Sequence record: PP658200.1
DNA length: 64,000 nt
DNA from: Escherichia phage HY126
Strand: one strand, 5' to 3'
Each line of letters begins with the position of its first letter. The stretch's first letter is position 1. Positions 1,775-56,084 of the stretch are shown here, piece after piece. The notes below the pieces were generated by a model, which was given only the letters and a program-made list of their open reading frames with translations, was not told the origin of the DNA and searched no databases. A program made the position numbers and the translations under genes.

Positions 1775-2674
1775 TTATTCCTCGATTACGACATCTTCAT
1801 ATTTAGGTATATTATACGGCGAAGAAATTAAAGCATTAAAGTAGATGAACTCGCCAAGACCTGGATGGAATACTTCTTCAGGATTTTCGAAATATTGAAT
1901 CTTCGGACGTCCTTTAAGAATTTGATAGTACTCAGTTTTAGTTGGTTTAAAAATTCGAATCAACGCTTCTTCAGGATACTTATTTCTGTCGAAGCTATTA
2001 TTTGGATCGGTTATATAAAGCGGTTGGCCTAATTGAATTGCACATTCAACCACTTGTTCAAAACGATAGCACGGGTCACTAATTCGAAATGGATGAAAAA
2101 TACCATCTAGATGAATAGGAGCCAAATCACCTACAAGACGCTGCATGATGGAAGGACGTATAACTTTCTGCGTTACGATAATCTTATTACCATCTGCACC
2201 TGCGTTAACCAGCACTTCTTTTTGACGTTCATTCAACACAGTAGTTTGAAGTGAACGATTAACCGACAACATATCAGTTTTTAAGAATTCGTCAATATAA
2301 AAACGTGGTTTATTAGGGTCTGCAGTGATATTGAAATTGAATTCCACATCAAAAGTGCCGGCATATCCGGTGATATCTGTGATTAGAAAATCACAATCAT
2401 AATAAGCAATTAATGAATCAACCACAAATTCATTTTCAGACCAGAAATATTTACGAGTGTTATACGCGTTATCTTTATACCATAATGGAACAAACTTAAA
2501 TTCTGGAAAAAGACGTTCGCATTCTTTAATATCAGATGCATTACGTGGATATGTAATCACATCACCCGGATTAGCACGGTGCAAATGAAGTTGGAAGTTG
2601 CCATCCTTAAGGATAGCATACTGTCCAGTTTCATAAGACCGCATACTCAAGATAGGTACGCGGAAAATAGCCAT
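1775..2674 (-). CDS. Hypothetical protein at the position T4 uses for beta-glucosyltransferase
   Basis: ORF track 299 aa; ATG overlaps gene 42 stop; no recognisable similarity to T4 beta-gt or alpha-gt. Confidence 0.6.
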   Translation of the reverse strand: MAIFRVPILSMRSYETGQYAILKDGNFQLHLHRANPGDVITYPRNASDIKECERLFPEFKFVPLWYKDNAYNTRKYFWSENEFVVDSLIAYYDCDFLITDITGYAGTFDVEFNFNITADPNKPRFYIDEFLKTDMLSVNRSLQTTVLNERQKEVLVNAGADGNKIIVTQKVIRPSIMQRLVGDLAPIHLDGIFHPFRISDPCYRFEQVVECAIQLGQPLYITDPNNSFDRNKYPEEALIRIFKPTKTEYYQILKGRPKIQYFENPEEVFHPGLGEFIYFNALISSPYNIPKYEDVVIEE

Positions 2675-3390
2675 TAGTCAAGGAATCCTTTAACATAATC
2701 AAAATCACGTTCAAACACATGGGCACTTACCATGGTATGAGTATAATCACCAACTTCTACACCACATTCGTTAGCGATATAATGAAGTAATTTTCCTTGG
2801 AGATAAAAATCCAACTGCATAACAACAGCACAGTTCTGAGAACGCATATGACAGTGGGTATAAAGCTTACCATCACGAATATAATAAGTCACTGAGTCAG
2901 TACATGGATATTCAAGCGTTTCGTCTGAATCAAGCAAAGCCTGATCGGAACTTTCTAGAATTTGGAACACAACTCTTCGGGAGTTAGGCTTCTCTTTAAG
3001 TTCTTTTAGAAGAGCTGGTAATTGGGCCGCAATGCGAGGACCATAGAAAGTGTTGAAGTTTGCAGGCAAAGCGTCTGATTTAGGTTTAGAAATAAATTTA
3101 GCGACGTTAGGATATGCCTTAAATGCTTCTTTTGCATCAGTACCACCAGAAATCATAAATTTCCAGAAATCTTCAGCATATTCATAAGAGATGCGATTAA
3201 TACGTGGGTCGGTCATTTTGAATGATGAAGGGGTATCAACAACTACTGTCATAGACCCAATTTCATTACAACGTCCAATACGAGAATCAGTAACGAACTG
3301 TGGATTTTCTAAAATTTCACGATTGACAGCTTTAAATGCGGATTGAAAATCTGCGGCTTTAATATATTTCATTGTGTTATGTTTTCCCAT
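2674..3390 (-). CDS. 42: dCMP hydroxymethylase
   Basis: ORF track 238 aa; thymidylate-synthase-fold signatures (NSRRVVFQILE, CTDSVTYYIRD, SAHVF) as in T4 gp42. Confidence 0.85.
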   Translation of the reverse strand: MGKHNTMKYIKAADFQSAFKAVNREILENPQFVTDSRIGRCNEIGSMTVVVDTPSSFKMTDPRINRISYEYAEDFWKFMISGGTDAKEAFKAYPNVAKFISKPKSDALPANFNTFYGPRIAAQLPALLKELKEKPNSRRVVFQILESSDQALLDSDETLEYPCTDSVTYYIRDGKLYTHCHMRSQNCAVVMQLDFYLQGKLLHYIANECGVEVGDYTHTMVSAHVFERDFDYVKGFLD

Positions 3391-3572
3391 GTTTACCTCA
3401 ATACAGTTATTATATACTCAATTCATAAAGCTTATTTGAATTTCTTAGCGATGTTGATATAACGTAAAGCTTCAGCATCGATACTTCCAAGAACACTATG
3501 AAGAAATGCATCAGCATAGTATTCTAGTTGAACAGGTTTCTTTAATCACTTTAAGCCGCTTTGGTTTCAAAC

Positions 3573-3592
3573 AGGCCCATAAGGGCCTTTTT
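3573..3592. terminator. Stem-loop AGGCCC-ataa-GGGCCT with T5 run on the plus strand
   Basis: Perfect 6-bp stem read directly; lies ~80 nt 3' of the 3670..4830 stop in the 42/sugar-module intergenic gap. Confidence 0.35.
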
Positions 3593-3669
3593 AAGAATTT
3601 GTTCGTTGCTGTTAATTTTCATAGTCAAAATCTCTTCATTAAGTTGGTGGTTAAAAGTTTTTCTAGAAA

Positions 3670-13310: not shown

Positions 13311-13727
13311 TTATGCAGCAACCATCTGCTTTTTAATAGCTTCAGGCAGTGATTCAATATATTCTGGAATTTTAGAAGCAACAATTTCACCAGCTGCAAT
13401 TAGTTGTTCGTCGGCATCAACACAGTAGAGATCTTCCAGACGCTCAGAACCATCTTTATCAAGAACGATTTTTCCGCCGGCTTCAATAGAATCTTTATAG
13501 TGCTTACGCATCAGATGAATCCACATATCAGATACATCGTTATCAATAAAACCATAAATCATAAAACGAGTTTCTTGTGGCAAAGATTGGAGTTTTTTAG
13601 CACTTACGTCATCACAATGCAGGACCCATGCTTTACGAACACGATTATGGTTATGTGGGTTAGCGTCAGTACGGATAGAAGTAACTTTCAGATCAGCAGC
13701 AGTGAAACCTTTAGCAGTAGTAAACAT
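13311..13727 (-). CDS. rpbA: RNA polymerase-binding protein RpbA (positional)
   Basis: ORF track 138 aa; between 45 and 46 as in T4. Confidence 0.6.
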   Translation of the reverse strand: MFTTAKGFTAADLKVTSIRTDANPHNHNRVRKAWVLHCDDVSAKKLQSLPQETRFMIYGFIDNDVSDMWIHLMRKHYKDSIEAGGKIVLDKDGSERLEDLYCVDADEQLIAAGEIVASKIPEYIESLPEAIKKQMVAA

Positions 13728-13739
13728 ATTATTTCTCTC

Positions 13740-13940
13740 TTATTCGTAGAAGTCGGTAACTGTCCATGCGGAATTGCGATTAGACATTATTTTATTATAC
13801 TCATCTTTAAAAGCAGATTTGAGCATTTGTTCAGTAACAATATGTTCTTCACCTGAAAACGTATTGGTCAAAACATATTTTTTAATTTCAGGGACAACGA
13901 GAAGATGTTGCCCGGTTGAATACTCCATGTTGTTCTCCAT
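13740..13940 (-). CDS. Hypothetical small protein (45.2-like position)
   Basis: ORF track 66 aa, tightly packed between rpbA and 46. Confidence 0.45.
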   Translation of the reverse strand: MENNMEYSTGQHLLVVPEIKKYVLTNTFSGEEHIVTEQMLKSAFKDEYNKIMSNRNSAWTVTDFYE

Positions 13941-13982
13941 TTAATTTGATGTGGTCATTATAACCACATCATGTTAAAGCGT

Positions 13983-15671
13983 TTATGAAACAGTCATTAC
14001 CGTAAATCGTCCAACTTTGCTCATCTGAAGATGTTGTCCATAAGCTTGTGGGTCATGGTCTCTATGACTAATTATAAACACGTTTGCATCGGTTAGAGAG
14101 TTAAGAATTGTTGAAATAGCTTTAATACCTTCAGAATCAGTAGCGGAATCCATGACTTCGTCCATAATTAATGTATTGATTCTAACACCAGAGACCTTTT
14201 CAGCAATATCTCGCCATGTAAACAACAATGCGATATCGATACGTGCCTTTTCACCTTGACTAAATGAAGCATAACTAAAATCTTCACGACCACGTGATTT
14301 TATAGATTCATTGAATTCTTCGTCAATAGAAAATACGTAATCAGCTTCCATGATTTTAAGATAATGGTTAATCTGCTTGTTGAACAGAGGCACATATTTT
14401 TTAATGATAGCACCTTTAATACCAGAATCTTTTAACATATCTGTGATAATACCACGATGGTATTTTTCAAGAACGATATCAGATTTTGTTTTAATGATTT
14501 TATCAAGTTCTTTTTGAAGCAAAGCTATCTCATCAGCATGGTCGATAAATTCCGCCGAGGCTTGTTCTATTGCAGCTTTAACTTTCTTAGCTTTATCAAT
14601 AGTGGCAATCATTGCTTGTTTCTTGGTACGAATATCAGATGCAAGGTCCTGTTTAGTCTTAACATTAGCTCTATATTCGTCCACTAGGACACTCAGATTA
14701 TCTCTGTGACATGTAAGTTGCTCGAATGAGTGATTACATTCATGAAGCTTATTGGTAATCTTAGAGACAATAGGATCACCCTGGTGCAACTGTGATGCAC
14801 AAGTAGGACATGTACCACCATCATGATACATCTTAATAACTTTGTTATACGAGTCAATTTTAGATTTAATCAAGAATGCTTCTTGTCCTATCTTGTTGAA
14901 TGCCTCAGTAGGGTCTTCATCAAGAACGATATTAAGTAGTCGCTCATTAGCTTCTTCGATTTCTGCTTTTAATGAACGAGCTTCTTTGGCTAGGTCGTCA
15001 TACATATTCTGTAGACGCGCTACATTATCACCAGATAATTTCTTTTGACGTTCGATATTCTCGTTATAAATCTTAATTTGTTGGATAACACCATCTTTCT
15101 TGGCATCGAGAACTTGTCCCTGGGAATTAAGTTCTCGAACTTGAGACTTATTGATTTTATCCATTTCAGCGAGTGTGCCGACTTCTAAAAGGTCTTCGAC
15201 AAGTTTTCTGCGAGCAGGGGTGCTAAGAGCCATGAAAGGGGTATACCCTGCCGTCCCAAGCACAACGATTTGTTTAAAAGACGCGTATGACATTCCGATG
15301 CTGCGTTCAAATTCTTCTTGGAAGTCACGACTGCTGGCAGATTCATCAAGACGAACACCGTCAACGGAGATTTCGAAAATATTGGGCTTTTGGCCACGTT
15401 TAATGAAGTATTTTTTACCATCGAATTCCATCCAAAGCTCAACTAAGAGCTCTTTCTTGTTCGTGCTATTAATGATTTGCCCTTTCTTAACATCACGAAA
15501 TGGTTTACCGAAAAGTCCGAAAGTAATGGCTTCTAACATCGTAGATTTACCACCACCATTTTTACCAGTGATTAATGTCTTTTGGACTTTATCTAATTGG
15601 ATGTCAATAGGATTCCCACCTACCGACATGATGTTTTGATAACGAACACGATTTAATTTAAATGATTTCAT
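13983..15671 (-). CDS. 46: Recombination endonuclease subunit (Rad50/SbcC-like ATPase)
   Basis: ORF track 562 aa; Walker A GKNGGGKST, long coiled coil, C-terminal signature region. Confidence 0.95.
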   Translation of the reverse strand: MKSFKLNRVRYQNIMSVGGNPIDIQLDKVQKTLITGKNGGGKSTMLEAITFGLFGKPFRDVKKGQIINSTNKKELLVELWMEFDGKKYFIKRGQKPNIFEISVDGVRLDESASSRDFQEEFERSIGMSYASFKQIVVLGTAGYTPFMALSTPARRKLVEDLLEVGTLAEMDKINKSQVRELNSQGQVLDAKKDGVIQQIKIYNENIERQKKLSGDNVARLQNMYDDLAKEARSLKAEIEEANERLLNIVLDEDPTEAFNKIGQEAFLIKSKIDSYNKVIKMYHDGGTCPTCASQLHQGDPIVSKITNKLHECNHSFEQLTCHRDNLSVLVDEYRANVKTKQDLASDIRTKKQAMIATIDKAKKVKAAIEQASAEFIDHADEIALLQKELDKIIKTKSDIVLEKYHRGIITDMLKDSGIKGAIIKKYVPLFNKQINHYLKIMEADYVFSIDEEFNESIKSRGREDFSYASFSQGEKARIDIALLFTWRDIAEKVSGVRINTLIMDEVMDSATDSEGIKAISTILNSLTDANVFIISHRDHDPQAYGQHLQMSKVGRFTVMTVS

Positions 15672-41222: not shown

Positions 41223-41552
41223 TTATACTCTAGGCTTTTGAGCTTGTTTGGTATTGGATTCCCATGCAGCTTTGGTAATTTTGTTAGCGGCATAACCAAA
41301 GGCATTAGATAGAACACCTTTAGAGTTGAATACATCCAATCCAATAAGTACACCGGCTGCGTTAAATTTAGGAGCAAAGTATGCATTAGTTTTAGAAAGA
41401 GCTTTTTTCAATTCAGGGTCTTGAACCAAACCATCAAAAACGCCTTTACTATTTACTTTATATGTTACTTTGGGATTTTTACCTTCTTCGATAGCAGCTT
41501 TCTGTTCCGCAGATAATGTAACTTCAGTGATAAACTCTTGATACGTTTTCAT
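41223..41552 (-). CDS. Internal-protein-like, capsid targeting sequence MKTYQEFITE
   Basis: ORF track 109 aa; N-terminal 10 aa match T4 IP targeting/protease-cleavage leader. Confidence 0.65.
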   Translation of the reverse strand: MKTYQEFITEVTLSAEQKAAIEEGKNPKVTYKVNSKGVFDGLVQDPELKKALSKTNAYFAPKFNAAGVLIGLDVFNSKGVLSNAFGYAANKITKAAWESNTKQAQKPRV

Positions 41553-41577
41553 TTTGTTCCTATTGTTTTAATTTATG

Positions 41578-41892
41578 TTATTCTTTAGGGAAGTTTTTAG
41601 AGTATGCATCATAAAGTTTATTACCGATGCGACGGAAGACTTTAGCTGCAAAACGGTTTTCAGGGTTTTTAATCATGATTTGCATCATGTAAGTTCCTGC
41701 ATCCGAAAGAGCTTCTTCATAGTACCCATTAATTTCTTTAAGAGTCCTACGTTTACCACCAGGACCATCAACAGTAATTTTCCATTTACCTGTAGAAGTG
41801 CGGCTAGGTGGCTCAACTTGTTCAATCCAAATATAACCACCTTCAACGCGTTGGTTGGCGGATTCTGCAATAAATTCTTTATACGTTTTCAT
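41578..41892 (-). CDS. Internal-protein-like, capsid targeting sequence MKTYKEFIAE
   Basis: ORF track 104 aa. Confidence 0.65.
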   Translation of the reverse strand: MKTYKEFIAESANQRVEGGYIWIEQVEPPSRTSTGKWKITVDGPGGKRRTLKEINGYYEEALSDAGTYMMQIMIKNPENRFAAKVFRRIGNKLYDAYSKNFPKE

Positions 41893-41913
41893 TTTTGTTT
41901 CCTTGGTTGTTTT

Positions 41914-41952
41914 GATAGAGTAATTATACCATATTAATACTTAAGCGTAAAC
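41914..41952 (-). promoter_or_regulatory. Early-type promoter (GTTTAC-18-TATAAT)
   Basis: Minus sense GTTTAC and TATAAT upstream of 41578..41892; -35 abuts the stop of 41956..42216. Confidence 0.45.
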
Positions 41953-41955
41953 AAT

Positions 41956-42216
41956 TTAAGCTTTACCGCCAGAAATAATTCCGAAGTTGTTAAAATCGTA
42001 TCCAATATCGTCAACATCTACTTTAGGGCTTGCTACAACATAAGCAATTTCACTACGTTTTGCATAGGTGTTGATTTCTTTACCATCGCCACCTAAGAAA
42101 AAATACCCATTACGTTTTAATGAGCCAAAGTCTTCCGCATCACCAATGAAAGCTTTAACTTTAAATTTAGGACCTTTGGCATCTGCTTCAGCGATAAATT
42201 CTTGATACATTTTCAT
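41956..42216 (-). CDS. Internal-protein-like, capsid targeting sequence MKMYQEFIAE
   Basis: ORF track 86 aa. Confidence 0.65.
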   Translation of the reverse strand: MKMYQEFIAEADAKGPKFKVKAFIGDAEDFGSLKRNGYFFLGGDGKEINTYAKRSEIAYVVASPKVDVDDIGYDFNNFGIISGGKA

Positions 42217-42222
42217 TTTTCC

Positions 42223-42636
42223 TTAGTAAATTGATTTACCATAGTATTTGTACCAAGTAGGGCGTTGAGCAATTTTTTCATCTAAGCGAGCTTGACTTAT
42301 CGCAATGGACGCTTCGGACGGGACATAATTATTACGAAATTCGGCAGGGATGTCGGAAATATCCTGGACAGTCGTGTCCTTGATTTTGAAACCACGTTTC
42401 AAGCATTCGGCGATTAGCTCGATTTGACGTAAACGTAAAAATTCGAGTTTGTCGTAAAAGAATGTTACGTGACCTGTGCCTAAGATAAATGTTGGAGAGA
42501 TTTTAAAATCCTTTACACGTTTACCGTTTTGAACATGTTTACGGACTGCACCAAATACGCGTGGTAATTCACGATACTCAGCCATAAGATGTTGGTCAGT
42601 CAGTTCAGAAACAAGTGTTAAATTGATACGAGTCAT
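42223..42636 (-). CDS. denV: Endonuclease V (pyrimidine-dimer DNA glycosylase)
   Basis: Near-identical to T4 DenV from [12 protein letters not shown]; start at fifth codon of track ORF. Confidence 0.9.
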
Positions 42637-42641
42637 AATTT

Positions 42642-42693
42642 CCTCCAAGTAGTTGATGAATGTATAGTATCAAAACCCTTGGAGGAAGTAAAC
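42642..42693 (-). promoter_or_regulatory. Promoter/stem-loop cassette with SD in 3' arm (upstream of denV)
   Basis: Minus sense GTTTAC-tt-CCTCCAAG...TACTATAC...CTTGGAGG-aaatt-ATG. Confidence 0.5.
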
Positions 42694-42694
42694 A

Positions 42695-42976
42695 CTATTT
42701 TTCTGAAGCGCCTGAAATATATTTTTCAAGACGTTGTTTCATCAGCGAGCCGTTCTTAGCGATTTCTTCCGGTTTATCGCACATACGTAACAAGGCTTCA
42801 AGCTTAGCGATATCGCTGGTACGTTCAAATTTGCGAGTATCTATCTTACTAGCAAGTTCAGAAATACGTGCTAGTAGACTTTCGGCTTCAACCAAAGCTG
42901 CACCTAGCTTAGTTGCAAATGTGTCAGTAGCTTCGTTAAGAATAGATTCTGATAAAAATTCACTATAGGTTTTCAT
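42695..42976 (-). CDS. Internal-protein-like, capsid targeting sequence [10 protein letters not shown]
   Basis: Track ORF trimmed to ATG 42976, overlapping gene e stop (ATGA). Confidence 0.65.
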
Positions 42977-50593: not shown

Positions 50594-51097
50594 TCATTTA
50601 TTTTTAATTTTGCAAATTTTTTCTGCTTCAGCAATTGCAGCGTCAATGATGCTTTGTGCAATTTTATTACTAGTTGACCTGGCAATCACACTAAGAACAA
50701 TTTCTTTTTCTTCACCACCCCAACCCCAAGTCCTTTGTTCGTGGGTACCTTTAACTACAGCTGAAACTTCAACAGAACGTCCACCATCAGAAGTTTTAAC
50801 ATCTACAACCCAATCACCATCTTTCTCTTCTACCCTTGATTTATCCCAAGAAATACTAATATATGATTCGCTGTCAATAGAAGTCGCCGGGTTTTTCTCT
50901 ACCGTAAGACCTTCACTTTCCAGCCATTCAATAGTATTTGCGCATAAATCAGAAGAACACCTCATCGGAAACCTGCAAGATTTTTCACCTTTAGCTGCAG
51001 TGTTATACATCTTTTCTAAAATACGCTTTTGCACGTTTTTAAAAATAGTTTCAGCAGATTCTTCAGATTTTTTATTCAGTTCGGTATAAAGACTCAT
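50594..51097 (-). CDS. Hypothetical protein
   Basis: ORF track 167 aa. Confidence 0.55.
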   Translation of the reverse strand: MSLYTELNKKSEESAETIFKNVQKRILEKMYNTAAKGEKSCRFPMRCSSDLCANTIEWLESEGLTVEKNPATSIDSESYISISWDKSRVEEKDGDWVVDVKTSDGGRSVEVSAVVKGTHEQRTWGWGGEEKEIVLSVIARSTSNKIAQSIIDAAIAEAEKICKIKNK

Positions 51098-51116
51098 AAC
51101 ATTTTCCTCATGTTTT

Positions 51117-51154
51117 TATAGGTCTATAGTAACACATCTAGGGAAGAAGTAAAC
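51117..51154 (-). promoter_or_regulatory. Promoter cassette GTTTAC...TTACTATAGACCTATA
   Basis: Minus sense, upstream of 50594..51097. Confidence 0.5.
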
Positions 51155-51186
51155 AACTTTTTCAGTAAGTTATAGACCCCCTAATG

Positions 51187-51202
51187 GGGACCGAAGTCCC
51201 CA
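51187..51202 (-). terminator. Stem-loop GGGGAC-UUCG-GUCCCC immediately 3' of 51207..51833
   Basis: 6-bp GC stem with UUCG loop 5 nt after stop; no U tract, so may be a stability element rather than a terminator. Confidence 0.35.
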
Positions 51203-51206
51203 TTCT

Positions 51207-51833
51207 TTACTTACGAGTTTTTGCATACTGAGCAGCGTCAGCAGCCAAACGACCTGCCTGACGAAGTTTTTCTTTAATCGCATCGTGAAGTGGTTGAGTA
51301 TACTTCAAACCTTCGATAGTCAAATAAAGACGATAAAGGTCTGGGGTATCAAGGTTGTTGATATGTTGGCCATTACGAAGACTGTTGAATTCACGAACGA
51401 GTGAAGATGTATCGGATTCAATATCACGAACAAGCGAAGATAGTTGTTTATATTTTTTTTCCAGGCTAGAAGTATCAAACTTAAGAGCAGGAGCTTTAGG
51501 AGTTGCTTTTACTTCCGGCTTAGGCTCAGGTTTTGCTATTGCTTTAGGGGTCGCAGGTTTAGGAACGGTAGGAGCAGGTTTTACTTTAGGCGAACCCGAT
51601 TTAGCAGAAACACCGCCACTAACAATATCTTTGAATGCTTTAGAAGCTCTGTAATATTCTTTTTGGCTGGAAGTGTCGATACCATACATGGCTTGAACGT
51701 TTTTGAAAAACTCTGTACTAGTTTTTGTACCAGAAATAGCATCGTAAGCAGCTTGCCATTTCTCTTTTGTCATACGTACACCGGCTTCGGTGATTACTTC
51801 CGTTTCGGCTAAAAATTCATTAAAAGTATACAT
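51207..51833 (-). CDS. Internal-protein-like (leader MYTFNEFLAE) with Lys/Pro/Ala-rich central region
   Basis: ORF track 208 aa; CTS-like leader; SPKVKPAPTVPKPATPKAIAKPEPKPEVKATPKAP low-complexity segment. Confidence 0.6.
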   Translation of the reverse strand: MYTFNEFLAETEVITEAGVRMTKEKWQAAYDAISGTKTSTEFFKNVQAMYGIDTSSQKEYYRASKAFKDIVSGGVSAKSGSPKVKPAPTVPKPATPKAIAKPEPKPEVKATPKAPALKFDTSSLEKKYKQLSSLVRDIESDTSSLVREFNSLRNGQHINNLDTPDLYRLYLTIEGLKYTQPLHDAIKEKLRQAGRLAADAAQYAKTRK

Positions 51834-51868
51834 TGATGGTCCTTAGAAAGTAGGTTTATTGTTTACTA

Positions 51869-51876
51869 TATTTATA
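51869..51876 (-). promoter_or_regulatory. Late promoter TATAAATA
   Basis: Exact TATAAATA on minus strand ~36 nt upstream of the 51833 ATG. Confidence 0.5.
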
Positions 51877-51877
51877 C

Positions 51878-51906
51878 AAAAAAGCCCCAACCTTTCGGAA
51901 GGGGCT
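51878..51906 (-). terminator. Rho-independent terminator (AGCCCC-loop-GGGGCU + U6)
   Basis: GC stem and six U on the minus-strand transcript, 3' of the ORF-free 51950..52200 region. Confidence 0.7.
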
Positions 51907-51949
51907 ATATACCTTGTCGGGGTTTCCACCTACTAAGGCAAGTGTTTGT

Positions 51950-52195
51950 ACGAAACGCCGGGATTCGAACCCGGTTATTAAGCAGTTGACGCTACTCAAT
52001 ATTTTTAAAAGGCCATATCTCGACCATATCCGAACGTTCCGTCAAAAACGCTACTCGGCTTACGGCAAAGATATTTCCTCGAATCGATAATTCTTTGCGC
52101 CGTTTCTGCTGTGATGTAAGGGGATATTAACAAATCATAAAGATTTATTAAGACCAGTCCTTACTCAGGGAACATCAGTCCGACGACTTGCCGGT
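51950..52195 (-). ncRNA. Candidate stable RNA with tRNA-like 3' end (T4 rnaC/rnaD-like position)
   Basis: ~250 nt without credible ORF; minus-strand 3' end CCGGGTTCGAATCCCGG-CGTTTCG mimics tRNA T-arm/acceptor but no full cloverleaf; several internal stems. Confidence 0.3.
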
Positions 52196-52209
52196 AGCGA
52201 CCCGGCTTC

Positions 52210-52554
52210 TTATTTTGACATATCATCAATTTGTTCTCTACGTCTACGCCATAGATTAATTACTTCATCAACACATTCAGCATTTGGTATATGACGACAA
52301 TAGTATAGTGATTCGCGTTTCTGGAACCGATGTTGTAATGGAATTTCGTTTAAAAGGTCTTTACGGTCAAAGTATTCAAAACTAGTTAACCCGGAACGGT
52401 TTTTAAGAAACTTCCAATGTCCGAATTCATTTTGAAAATAGACATAATCAGCATGCTGATACAGCGAATTAATTAACCTATCGGAAATAACTGTTTCACG
52501 TTCGTTAAAATAAAACGTTAAGTCATGAACTACCAGATAAATATTGCCTTTCAT
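52210..52554 (-). CDS. Hypothetical protein
   Basis: Track ORF trimmed to ATG 52554 with GAGG SD (MKGNIYLVVHDLTF...). Confidence 0.45.
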   Translation of the reverse strand: MKGNIYLVVHDLTFYFNERETVISDRLINSLYQHADYVYFQNEFGHWKFLKNRSGLTSFEYFDRKDLLNEIPLQHRFQKRESLYYCRHIPNAECVDEVINLWRRRREQIDDMSK

Positions 52555-52633
52555 ATTTTCCTCACTTAAAGTTGGTGCCTCTAGAAAGATTTGAACTCTC
52601 ACCATTAACCTTAGAACGATTATATGCTATCCA

Positions 52634-53299
52634 TTACACTATAGAGGCAATTAAATTATTTACAATATCTTCTTTATAAACTTCAGCATAATGAAGTTCA
52701 TATATTTCCCATCCTAATGATTTTATAATATCATGGCGTTCTTTATAATAAGGGGCCAAAATCTTTTTCTTAGGATTGGAGTAATGTTGGTTTCCATTAA
52801 CTTCAATAATAATCTTTTTATCTATTAAAGCAATATCCGTGCAATACGCTCGGTTTTTAACCGGTTGGTATTCTTCAATAAATGAAATTCCGTTTTCTAT
52901 TAATTTAGATTTCAAAAATTCACAAGGCACAGATTTAAATTTTGTATTTTTCTTCCAAGGATGTTTATCAGGGTTTTCATTCAACCATTTTTTCCGAGCA
53001 TTAGATATTTTTATTCTAGATTCCTCAGAGTGTTCTCTACCTAATGAAGCGGCTGACAATTTTTGTCTAGTCTCTTCCGAAATTACTACAGGGACACCAG
53101 TCTTTTTAGATACAACATACTGGTTTAAATTACCTGAAGCTATACGTGCTTTATTCATTGCTGCAATGGCTGATTTAGAACTTTCTTTATACAATTCCAA
53201 TTTAGGGTTGGATTTACACCATCTAGTGTGGTTAGCCATCCATCCTTTAGGTTTATTAGAAATATCAAATTCCATATTACAATGTTTACAAATGCTCAT
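52634..53299 (-). CDS. Freestanding homing-endonuclease-like protein (Zn finger + NUMOD-like repeats + DUF559/Vsr-like nuclease)
   Basis: CKHC...HTRWC; ISEETRQKLSAASLGREHSEESRIKISNARK; IIEVNGNQHY...ELHYAEV; start at ATG 53299 (track start is TTG 53305). Confidence 0.6.
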   Translation of the reverse strand: MSICKHCNMEFDISNKPKGWMANHTRWCKSNPKLELYKESSKSAIAAMNKARIASGNLNQYVVSKKTGVPVVISEETRQKLSAASLGREHSEESRIKISNARKKWLNENPDKHPWKKNTKFKSVPCEFLKSKLIENGISFIEEYQPVKNRAYCTDIALIDKKIIIEVNGNQHYSNPKKKILAPYYKERHDIIKSLGWEIYELHYAEVYKEDIVNNLIASIV

Positions 53300-53309
53300 T
53301 ACCAATTAT

Positions 53310-53328
53310 CTCCTATAAAATATAGGAG
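53310..53328 (-). promoter_or_regulatory. SD-sequestering hairpin upstream of the endonuclease-like gene
   Basis: CTCCTATA-ttt-TATAGGAG; 3' arm contains AGGAG 10 nt before the 53299 ATG. Confidence 0.4.
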
Positions 53329-53373
53329 TATTTATTATTTGGATAGAGCACTTAATTTACTTCGTTTAAATTA

Positions 53374-53445
53374 CTGGCGCACTTGGACTCGAACCAAGAT
53401 AAAGGAGTTAACAGCTCCCCGTAATAACCTTTATACGATGCACCA
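53374..53445 (-). tRNA. tRNA-Asn (anticodon GUU), CCA not encoded
   Basis: Hand-folded: acceptor TGGTGCA/TGCGCCA, D-arm with GG, anticodon stem GGGAG/CTCCT loop CTGTTAA, T-arm CTTGG-TTCGAGT-CCAAG. Confidence 0.8.
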
Positions 53446-53451
53446 TTTGTT

Positions 53452-53526
53452 TGGTGACCCTGGCTGGTTTCGATCCAGCTACCTATCAGTTATGAGCTGA
53501 CAGCTCTCCCATTGAGCTACAGGGCC
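53452..53526 (-). tRNA. tRNA with CAU anticodon (Met, or Ile if lysidine-modified), CCA encoded
   Basis: Hand-folded: acceptor GGCCCTG/CAGGGTC, D-arm GCTC-AATGGGA-GAGC, anticodon loop CTCATAA, T-arm GCTGG-ATCGAAA-CCAGC, 3' ACCA. Confidence 0.8.
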
Positions 53527-53605
53527 TAAATAACTTTCTATTATGAAAGGCACTTTAGAGCACCTTTGGTAATAGAGGGTATGAATTAATAATAACACAT
53601 AATTC

Positions 53606-54121
53606 TTAAAGCAAATCAATCATTTTAACAGTCGGCAAAACAATTTCTTCTTCAATATAAGCGAATTCAACACGTTCAACTACACGCAAGAAATCATAGT
53701 CGTAGTATTCAGAAGCATAGCCAAGAATATCAATAAGGCCTTGGGATATCTCATCGCCTTTCACAAAGAACAGGTCGAATACACGCGATTCGTCTTCTTC
53801 AGATTTATTACCAAGGTCGACTTCAATATCAAAGACCTTTTTAATGAATTCTGGATAAAGCTGGTCTGAGAACAGTCCTTCAACCAAGTATTCATAGATT
53901 AAAAGCGAGCAATCACTGAATGGTGTATTACCACAGTAACGTTCAGCTTTAGTGCTAGAATGACGACTCTTAAATTTCTTCAAGAGATATTTAAACTGTT
54001 GGAGCTCATGCTCTTCTACACCAAATAATGTTTTGGTTTTATAGTTGTCGCCGTCATTTTCCCAAGTAGTGACATCAATTACGTAACCTTTAGGAATTGT
54101 ACTGCCTAAACAAATATTCAT
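53606..54121 (-). CDS. Hypothetical acidic protein
   Basis: ORF track 171 aa. Confidence 0.55.
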   Translation of the reverse strand: MNICLGSTIPKGYVIDVTTWENDGDNYKTKTLFGVEEHELQQFKYLLKKFKSRHSSTKAERYCGNTPFSDCSLLIYEYLVEGLFSDQLYPEFIKKVFDIEVDLGNKSEEDESRVFDLFFVKGDEISQGLIDILGYASEYYDYDFLRVVERVEFAYIEEEIVLPTVKMIDLL

Positions 54122-55033: not shown

Positions 55034-55321
55034 TTACAGAAGAGTTTTTGCAATAATTTTAAGCTGAGCTACAGAAATGTGCTTAGCTTTAAACAGTGCA
55101 GTCTCTTCAGCCGGAGAGATAACAATAGTAGCGCCATCTTTCTTAGCGGACCACCCGTCTCCTAAGTAAACAGTACCTTTTACTTCTTCGCCGTCAGCTA
55201 GACTAATCATTGGTTTACCCTCACGGCCTTTGTTTGCTTTAATAACTTCGGAAGTAAGGGTTGCTTCAGTCAGAGTAGAAACGTTAGCAACAGGTGATAT
55301 AAATTCTTTATAGGTTTTCAT
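55034..55321 (-). CDS. Internal protein I-like (MKTYKEFISP leader), positional ipI
   Basis: ORF track 95 aa; CTS leader; lies just upstream of 57B as ipI does in T4. Confidence 0.7.
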   Translation of the reverse strand: MKTYKEFISPVANVSTLTEATLTSEVIKANKGREGKPMISLADGEEVKGTVYLGDGWSAKKDGATIVISPAEETALFKAKHISVAQLKIIAKTLL

Positions 55322-55346
55322 TTTATTTCCTTGAGGTTGTTTATTT

Positions 55347-55385
55347 GATAGGATGATAGTAACACACCATCATCCTTATGTAAAC
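55347..55385 (-). promoter_or_regulatory. Promoter/stem-loop cassette
   Basis: Minus sense GTTTACA-taAGGATGATG...TTACTATCATCCTATC; 8-bp inverted repeat. Confidence 0.5.
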
Positions 55386-55398
55386 TGTTTTGTGAAAA

Positions 55399-56084
<686 letters not shown>

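Follow-up and report, generated by a model that had tools for sequence, protein, structure and literature searches.

A candidate internal-protein gene with a putative late promoter between rnaC and e.8 in Escherichia phage HY126

The genes for the internal proteins (IPs) of T-even phages have been described at two loci, ipI and ipII/ipIII (PMC12373910), with an "absence of IP genes elsewhere" (PMC2839356); are these the only places where such genes lie? The question is raised by a gene at 51207..51833 (minus strand) in a 64,000-nucleotide (nt) stretch of DNA from Escherichia phage HY126 (record PP658200.1; "the window" below means this whole 64-kb stretch). It lies outside both described loci, between the homologue of T4 rnaC and the equivalent of the e.8 promoter; in the literature the locus of an IP gene is a descriptive feature and not a mechanistic requirement for membership of the class. 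The original prediction for this gene was of a leader-tagged, late, probably packaged protein whose Lys/Pro/Ala-rich, histone-H1-like segment would coat and shield injected DNA. Our analysis favours another role for the same protein: we think it probable, with some reserve, that it is an unannotated member of the T-even IP class, which would be loaded into the prohead, trimmed by the prohead protease and injected into the host, possibly as an agent against host defence.

The gene, its leader and its late promoter

The coding sequence (51207..51833, minus strand) consists of 208 codons plus a stop and begins at an ATG at 51833. Only three in-frame codons separate the preceding stop from this ATG, and a Shine-Dalgarno sequence, AAGGA (51840..51844, minus strand), is seen directly in the sequence 6 nt before it. 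Re-analysis of the window confirmed the 208-amino-acid (aa) open reading frame (ORF), the leader, the Pro-dense segment and the promoter octamer that had been predicted: the translation of the minus-strand ORF agrees with a product beginning MYTFNEFLAE, the Lys/Pro/Ala-rich segment SPKVKPAPTVPKPATPKAIAKPEPKPEVKATPKAP is present at residues 81-115, and the exact octamer lies 36 nt upstream, at 51869-51876, in a position that is conserved across genera (below). It is almost certainly a real late gene.

The window is from a Mosigvirus (an RB69/HX01/JS09-like T-even phage) and is 99.9% identical to phage pEK20 in the region of the gene, whose HX01 counterpart, D299_gp043, is recorded as a "hypothetical protein". 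A tblastn search places the gene in 138 records of phages, which belong to Mosigvirus, Dhakavirus, Karamvirus, Tegunavirus and Marfavirus or infect Serratia, Erwinia and Kosakonia, and the annotated matches among those listed are all "hypothetical protein". The protein matches phrog_2280 (function unknown) over its full length (E = 1.1e-57, residues 1-203 against profile positions 1-178 of 178), and searches of Pfam, NCBIfam and PDB sequences with the 208-aa protein gave no real family, only a compositional match to a TonB spacer (below). The family is small; when 1.8 billion representative proteins were searched exhaustively with its profile, just 13 clusters (at 50% identity) came back. Because it is found in only nine Klebsiella records, we judge a homologue in Jiaodavirus, the genus of phage ValerieMcCarty, to be unlikely.

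What marks this protein as a possible IP is its N-terminus. Residues 1-16 (MYTFNEFLAE/TEVITE; 51786..51833, minus strand) form a leader of the capsid-targeting type with two I/LxE motifs, LAE10 and ITE16, so that the protein begins MYTFNEFLAE-TEVITE-AG. Such a leader is a capsid-targeting sequence common to the T4 internal proteins and lets foreign proteins be encapsidated (PMC3012670), the prohead protease gp21 cleaves after I/LxE (PMC12991175), and T4 IPI is trimmed by 19 residues, from 95 aa to the 76-aa IPI* (PMC3012670). Its first ten residues are identical to the leader MKTYQEFIAE of T4 IPII and IPIII at six positions and conservatively replaced at three. The T4 IPI leader, MKTFKEFTSTTTPVSTITE, and that of the window protein, MYTFNEFLAETEVITE, both end in ITE followed by A, and the context of ITE16 is identical. 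When a regular expression for T4-type leaders was run over all six frames of the window it found only five ORF starts, all on the minus strand (the present gene and four in 41223-42976), so the leader is not a chance match; MKTYKEFIS begins the product of a sixth leader-tagged gene, that of the IPI homologue (55034-55321). Within the family E16 is invariant, and the leader and its I/LxE motifs are conserved: homologues begin MKTYNEFLNES-VL(S/T)E-A, and family member P0013 has a minimal leader, MLKFKEFISE followed by A. The metagenomic homologue P0020 (278 aa) has 60 additional residues ahead of its MINFNEFLAE leader; its start is probably mis-called, and if it were real the leader would be internal. 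In a BLASTP alignment with T4 IPIII only the first 26 residues are matched, and homology to IPIII was rejected because nothing aligns beyond residue 26.

Is the gene expressed late? A T4-type late promoter core, TATAAATA (51869..51876, minus strand), is an exact match at -43..-36 relative to the ATG, its final base being 36 nt away from the start codon's A. This octamer is not enriched in the AT-rich window (7 found against 8 expected), so its presence by itself proves nothing; we dropped the exact match as statistical evidence and count only its conserved position. Dhakavirus JS98, Tegunavirus fHe-Yen9-01 and Karamvirus AS6 all show the same order of a terminator hairpin, TATAAATA (28-35 nt ahead of the start codon), the gene and a hairpin, so that with the Mosigvirus of the window the octamer is kept in position, insulated by an upstream terminator, in four genera, and Klebsiella phage Marfa has CATAAATA at the promoter position of its homologue. 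The promoter is probably functional, because its position is kept though the proteins are merely 33-66% identical. An exact TATAAATA precedes only one of the window's six leader-tagged genes, that at 51207-51833. Early-type promoters without TATAAATA precede two others: GTTTAC...TATAAT (41893-41955, minus strand) stands before the ip gene at 41578-41892, and GTTTAC...TACTAT (55322-55400, minus strand) before the IPI homologue at 55034-55321.

Hairpins lie on both sides of this unit. Upstream of the promoter is an intrinsic terminator (51878..51906, minus strand) with an AGCCCC...GGGGCU stem and a run of six U residues (-16.5 kcal/mol, z = -3.1); it stops incoming transcription from the tRNA/rnaC region, and it has counterparts in JS98, fHe-Yen9-01, AS6, APCEc01 and T4. 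Directly past the stop codon is a hairpin with a 9-bp stem, GGGGAC-UUCG-GUCCCC (51183..51204, minus strand; about -16.6 kcal/mol, z = -1.9 against shuffles). The "strong terminator" that had been predicted immediately beyond the gene is thus real as a stable UUCG hairpin and fails as a canonical terminator, since the coding strand continues as AGGGGGUC with no U-run and a terminator scanner reports it on the opposite strand only. In JS98 and Marfa the hairpin followed by UUAGGGGG is also conserved. It likely serves to stabilise the 3' end of the RNA or as an attenuator, and also as a PeSL-like recombination element (see below). A motif right behind this YUYG-loop hairpin, UUAGGGGGU (51165-51182, minus strand), is kept in Mosigvirus, JS98 and Marfa and could be a processing or recombination signal. 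Farther on, a site of the form GTTTAC-17 nt-TACTAT (51126..51154, minus strand), which we take to follow the T4 early consensus and which a sigma-70 scanner does not report, looks like the promoter of the next gene (50594-51097); in T4, T2 and T6 a corresponding GTTTAC element stands ahead of e.8. The gene appears to be a self-contained late cassette within an early region.

Two predicted domains joined by a proline-rich linker

An AlphaFold2 model was built from a 9-sequence alignment (mean pLDDT 71.5), and it divides the protein beyond the leader into three parts. Residues 17-75 (51609..51785, minus strand) are predicted to form a basic (isoelectric point (pI) 9.5) three-helix domain with helices at 23-31, 39-50 and 57-72, which when modelled alone gave a pLDDT of 87.9 and a pTM of 0.75. 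Residues 75-112 are a linker that is predicted to be disordered (pLDDT below 50, about 33), with the Lys/Pro/Ala-rich segment (residues 81-115; 51489..51593, minus strand) as its core. Residues 117-208 (51210..51485, minus strand) would be a second helical domain, with helices at 122-153, 164-177 and 180-206 and an invariant loop, RNGQ.xNNLxTPDLY. If the leader is removed, a protein of about 21 kDa and pI about 9.7 would remain; pI values of 9.5-9.8 resemble that of T4 IPIII. A third I/LxE motif, IKE188, is present inside the C domain (below). Fold searches with the C domain gave generic helical bundles only, and a Foldseek search of BFVD found only the protein's own family. As modelled, this two-domain-plus-linker build is unusual in the T-even IP class.

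The linker has the highest Pro density (11 Pro in the 35 residues 81-115) among 35-aa windows of the 167 ORFs of at least 60 aa, against a background of 3.4% Pro in the window's ORFs. It is about 22% Lys and 30% Pro, has two Glu and carries a net charge of +6 over 37 aa; its charge density is modest, at +0.17 per residue. Across the superfamily the linkers are 12-49 aa long, with 14-31% Lys+Arg and 17-28% Pro, and their net charge per residue runs from +0.06 to +0.23; they are always of Lys/Pro/Ala character and never highly charged. Identity to the homologues is 22-81% in the N domain, 17-39% in the linker and 64-76% in the C domain, and by this measure the linker appears to be the fast-evolving, least conserved part of the protein and the C domain the most conserved. 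The family is modular: P0023 and P0026 keep the leader, N domain and linker and bear other C domains, and P0025 and P0027 join a related C domain to a different N domain (GKYSY...ERFxF). The linkers of JS98, P0002-P0012, P0015, P0018 and P0019 contain V-K-E before A, or K-V-E before A or T, which resembles a non-canonical gp21 site, and a cut there would part the N and C domains of these homologues in the head. Such VxE-A-like cleavage inside the linker was dropped for the window protein, which has no such site, though several homologues do.

How does this compare with the T4 proteins? IPI/IPI* and the window protein share an M-x-T-F/Y-x-E-F leader that ends in ITE followed by A, a basic and non-essential character, and a position in a variable cassette with stem-loop flanks, and the window has an IPI homologue besides (55034-55321). 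They differ in having no sequence similarity beyond the leader, in genomic locus, and in that IPI* is one compact alpha/beta domain of 76 residues whereas the mature window protein would be about 192 residues, all-alpha by prediction, in two domains with a disordered linker. IPIII (Ip3) is similar in bulk properties (193 against 208 aa, pI 9.65 against about 9.7, 25 Lys in each, a similar leader), but the bodies are non-homologous, IPIII has 4 Pro against 13 and no Pro-rich linker, and its gene adjoins gene e whereas the window gene adjoins rnaC. Mosigviruses have no IPIII homologue at the ipII/ipIII locus, and the window protein could therefore be their "large IP". The sole curated resemblance of the linker is to the Pro-rich spacer of TonB (NF008084, E = 0.003, TonB residues 75-117); both are rich in KP/PK dipeptides and are presumably extended and rigid-ish. 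The score of 17.4 bits is so far under the 315-bit cutoff that the match is purely compositional, and the window protein has neither the TonB C-terminal domain nor a membrane anchor.

The slot between rnaC and e.8

Directly upstream of the cassette, at about 51949-52087 (minus strand), lies a homologue of T4 rnaC (species 1 RNA) that is roughly 97% identical to it; an Rfam scan of 51100-53700 reported tRNAs only, rnaC having no Rfam model. A 47-aa ORF annotated in HX01 (D299_gp042, equivalent to 51856-51999 of the window) overlaps the rnaC homologue and the terminator and is probably spurious. Farther upstream, between the genes for tRNA-Arg and tRNA-Asn, a 223-aa ORF (52634-53305, minus strand) whose product combines a NUMOD3 motif with an endonuclease-like DUF559 domain seems, like segB in T4, to be a homing endonuclease gene; HX01 is about 750 nt shorter in this interval.

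In T4, T2 and T6 the interval from the rnaC terminator to the e.8 early promoter contains no gene; other phages have other leader-tagged genes in this slot. RB69 has there a gene whose product starts MKTYAEFLTE... and which is recorded as two ORFs, ORF149c and ORF148c, split by a frameshift; this split (RB69 13429-13991) could be a sequencing error, like the documented one at ORF053c/052c, or a real pseudogene. Alleles of the RB69 type are present in 165 records, which include RB14 and Shfl2. APCEc01 and AV113, which are also Mosigviruses, carry a 154-aa product that starts MKSYAEFLTE..., and this type is found in 512 records, many of them Tequatroviruses. In fHe-Yen9-01 (2501-3616) there are tandem paralogues, gp154 (MLQYNEFLKE) and gp153 (MLEYSEFLKE), which differ in their N domains and have short Lys/Pro/Ala linkers and related C domains. 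For the APCEc01- and RB69-type alleles, direct homology to the window protein was rejected because the pairwise comparisons are not significant, and the APCEc01 allele compared with the family profile is not significant either. APCEc01_157 matches P0025 (41% identity, E = 2e-29), RB69_149c matches P0022 (33% identity, E = 1e-13), and P0025 and P0022 each match the family profile. Since direct similarity to the window protein is not significant, we limit the claim to a transitive one, in which these alleles appear tied to the family through P0025 and P0022 only.

All three allele classes keep the canonical leader, and the rnaC-e.8 slot is most likely a third, previously undescribed IP hotspot. 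Stem-loop-plus-promoter cassettes at IP loci are reportedly the subject of Repoila et al. (1994). In the PeSL concept cassettes of this kind drive gene shuffling (PMC2839356). As in the PeSL/IP-locus cassettes (Arbiol et al. 2010), GGGG...CCCC stem-loops bracket the window gene, an early-type promoter lies just downstream, and alleles are present, absent or swapped between close relatives; the window cassette differs in having its own late promoter and in being at a third site. The GGGG/CCCC stem-loops on both flanks of the gene fit a recombination mechanism of the PeSL type, by which the alleles of the slot may have been exchanged. Two of the four leader-tagged genes at the ipII/ipIII locus of the window, 41223-41552 and 41578-41892 (minus strand), start MKTYQEFITE and MKTYKEFIAE and match phrog_3966, of "unknown function"; they are unannotated IP candidates.

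Packaging, possible function and the alternatives

The above features are those expected of an IP, but is the protein in the virion? A relative at the same locus appears to be. The g140 protein of Tequatrovirus fD1, which starts MKSYTQFLNEAVLNEA, is an APCEc01-type allele and is listed as a "PPAP" from liquid chromatography-tandem mass spectrometry (LC-MS/MS) of purified virions, and its neighbours g138 and g139 (e.8) were undetected in the same list. The reading of a leader-tagged, late and probably packaged protein is well supported by the conserved leader, protease motifs and promoter position and by the distant fD1 allele in virions; packaging itself is our inference, with that allele as its one proteomic support. 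We consider it likely that the protein is a packaged and processed IP.

In the sequence of events that we favour, transcription from the late promoter, insulated between the rnaC terminator and the downstream hairpin, would place synthesis in the period of prohead assembly. The capsid-targeting-type leader would carry the protein into the scaffolding core of the prohead, as in T4, and gp21 would remove the leader after LAE10 and/or ITE16, leaving the basic protein of about 21 kDa and pI about 9.7, with its three-helix N domain, a disordered linker of 35-40 aa and the conserved helical C domain. This mature protein would remain among the DNA in the head and leave with it at infection. In T4 heads the lysines alone of internal proteins touch DNA phosphates, and IPI* is proposed to undergo "DNA-bound ejection" (PMC3012670); the basic N domain plus linker is therefore a plausible DNA-riding or spacer module, which probably makes loose, non-specific contact with DNA, and a beads-on-a-string shape may suit passage through the tail channel. 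The C domain would then be the effector, acting against a host defence that meets the entering modified DNA, for example type IV restriction. This last step is argued by analogy: T4 Ip1, Ip2 and Ip3 have recently been shown to be injected inhibitors of type IV restriction, every one of them specific for its own GmrSD variant (PMC12373910), Bas37_0260, which lies at the T4 ipI locus and has the same N-terminal motif as the T4 IPs, is required on K-12 with McrA, McrBC and Mrr, and Mosigvirus DNA contains arabinosyl-hydroxymethylcytosine, a type IV target. Taken by itself the anti-defence function is tentative, and we hold it to be somewhat less than an even prospect.

Several observations weigh against an injected internal protein. 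The leader of the window protein is off consensus at positions 2 (Y for K) and 4 (F for Y), and a third I/LxE motif, IKE188, is present inside the C domain, though it is not conserved. A search of the literature for virion proteomics on this allele (in Mosigvirus, Dhakavirus, Karamvirus and Tegunavirus) found none, nor any for a Mosigvirus at all; the fD1 "PPAP" list is a lenient one of 113 proteins that include DenV, lysozyme and NudE, so that detection of g140 is support and not proof, and g140 is distant from the window protein, falling below significance when compared directly with the family profile. The searches made gave no likeness in fold or sequence to known anti-defence proteins. 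The C domain is 64-76% identical from E. coli to Yersinia phages, far more than an inhibitor of a hypervariable restriction enzyme would be expected to show; this suits a conserved target better than a hypervariable nuclease, and the partner may be a conserved host component or lie within the phage. The departures at Y2 and F4, the lack of proteomics for this allele and the cytoplasmic enzymes in lenient mass spectrometry lists would all suit a late protein that stays in the cytoplasm and whose leader-like N-terminus is vestigial. Such a vestige would hardly account for conservation of the leader and E16 while the adjoining N domain drops to 22% identity, for the canonical leader in all three allele classes of the locus, or for the presence of g140 in the fD1 list when its neighbours g138 and g139 are not in it, and we regard an unpackaged protein as very improbable.

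Would a packaged protein need to act after injection? It could be an accessory of the prohead core or scaffold, recruited by its leader to aid head assembly or DNA condensation. Its leader and late expression would put it in the prohead core, all-helical domains with a long helical hairpin resemble scaffolding-type proteins, and a C domain so well conserved from one host genus to the next fits a phage-internal partner. T4, T2 and T6 lack the gene, however, and within one genus alleles of unrelated appearance take its place, a pattern typical of an accessory and not of a structural function; there are only the 13 clusters among 1.8 billion proteins, and the fold searches gave no significant match to a scaffold protein. 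We judge a scaffold role to be quite unlikely. Slightly less unlikely, and still improbable, is the role given in the original prediction, that of a histone-H1-like protein which would bind DNA non-specifically, cover the genome in the head and guard the injected DNA against nucleases. Proteins with H1/H5-like Lys/Ala/Pro repeats include linker histones and the bacterial AlgP, Hc1 and HupB tail, and in the H1 tails about 40% of residues are Lys and very few are acidic. The window protein resembles them in being net basic and in having a Lys/Ala/Pro-rich, disordered basic segment after a small three-helix domain, and this linker composition is kept in all family members, even past domain swaps. 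But the Lys content and charge density of the linker are about half those of an H1 tail and Pro, at 30%, dominates; the segment is an internal linker and not a terminal tail, is short (about 37 aa; 12-49 aa in the family, and 12 aa with a net charge of +1 in the RB69 allele) and poorly conserved; no wing is predicted; and there is no sequence homology. A coat would leave the most conserved part, the C domain, unexplained, the one curated likeness of the linker is to TonB, and the characterised T4 IPs, whose lysines do contact DNA phosphates, are specific inhibitors of restriction enzymes, Bas37_0260 likewise counters restriction, and none of them is described as a DNA coat. Stoichiometry also speaks against a coat. 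A T4 head contains about 1000 IP molecules in total (PMC3012670), and we estimate that at IP copy numbers a protein of net charge +14 could offset no more than about 1-2% of the DNA phosphates (even some 370 copies would cancel about 1.5% of a total near 340,000), so that a genome-wide coat is unlikely and the predicted shield is not supported as stated. Weak association of the protein with DNA is possible.

Returning to the injected internal protein, a bolder form of it can be drawn, in which the capsid-targeting leader loads the protein, an H1-like module (a helix-turn-helix-like three-helix domain plus a Lys/Pro/Ala tail) tethers it to the leading part of the genome so that it travels in with the DNA and remains bound there, and the C domain acts at that place against a conserved host factor and not against a hypervariable type IV restriction enzyme, with the slot as a third, widespread IP hotspot. 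This would be a new injected-protein architecture; we put it forward as a speculation that is unlikely as a whole. If it were true, the slot, one or other of whose alleles is present in more than 800 phage records, would be a reservoir of uncharacterised anti-defence effectors.

The gene and its allelic partners would make up a third IP locus in hundreds of sequenced T-even phages, which are used in therapy and biocontrol, and the copies among the matches listed are annotated as "hypothetical" or similar throughout. If the proteins are packaged, they are ready candidates for new anti-defence functions and determinants of host range, and their two-domain-plus-linker design would widen the picture of the cargo that T4-type heads load and eject.

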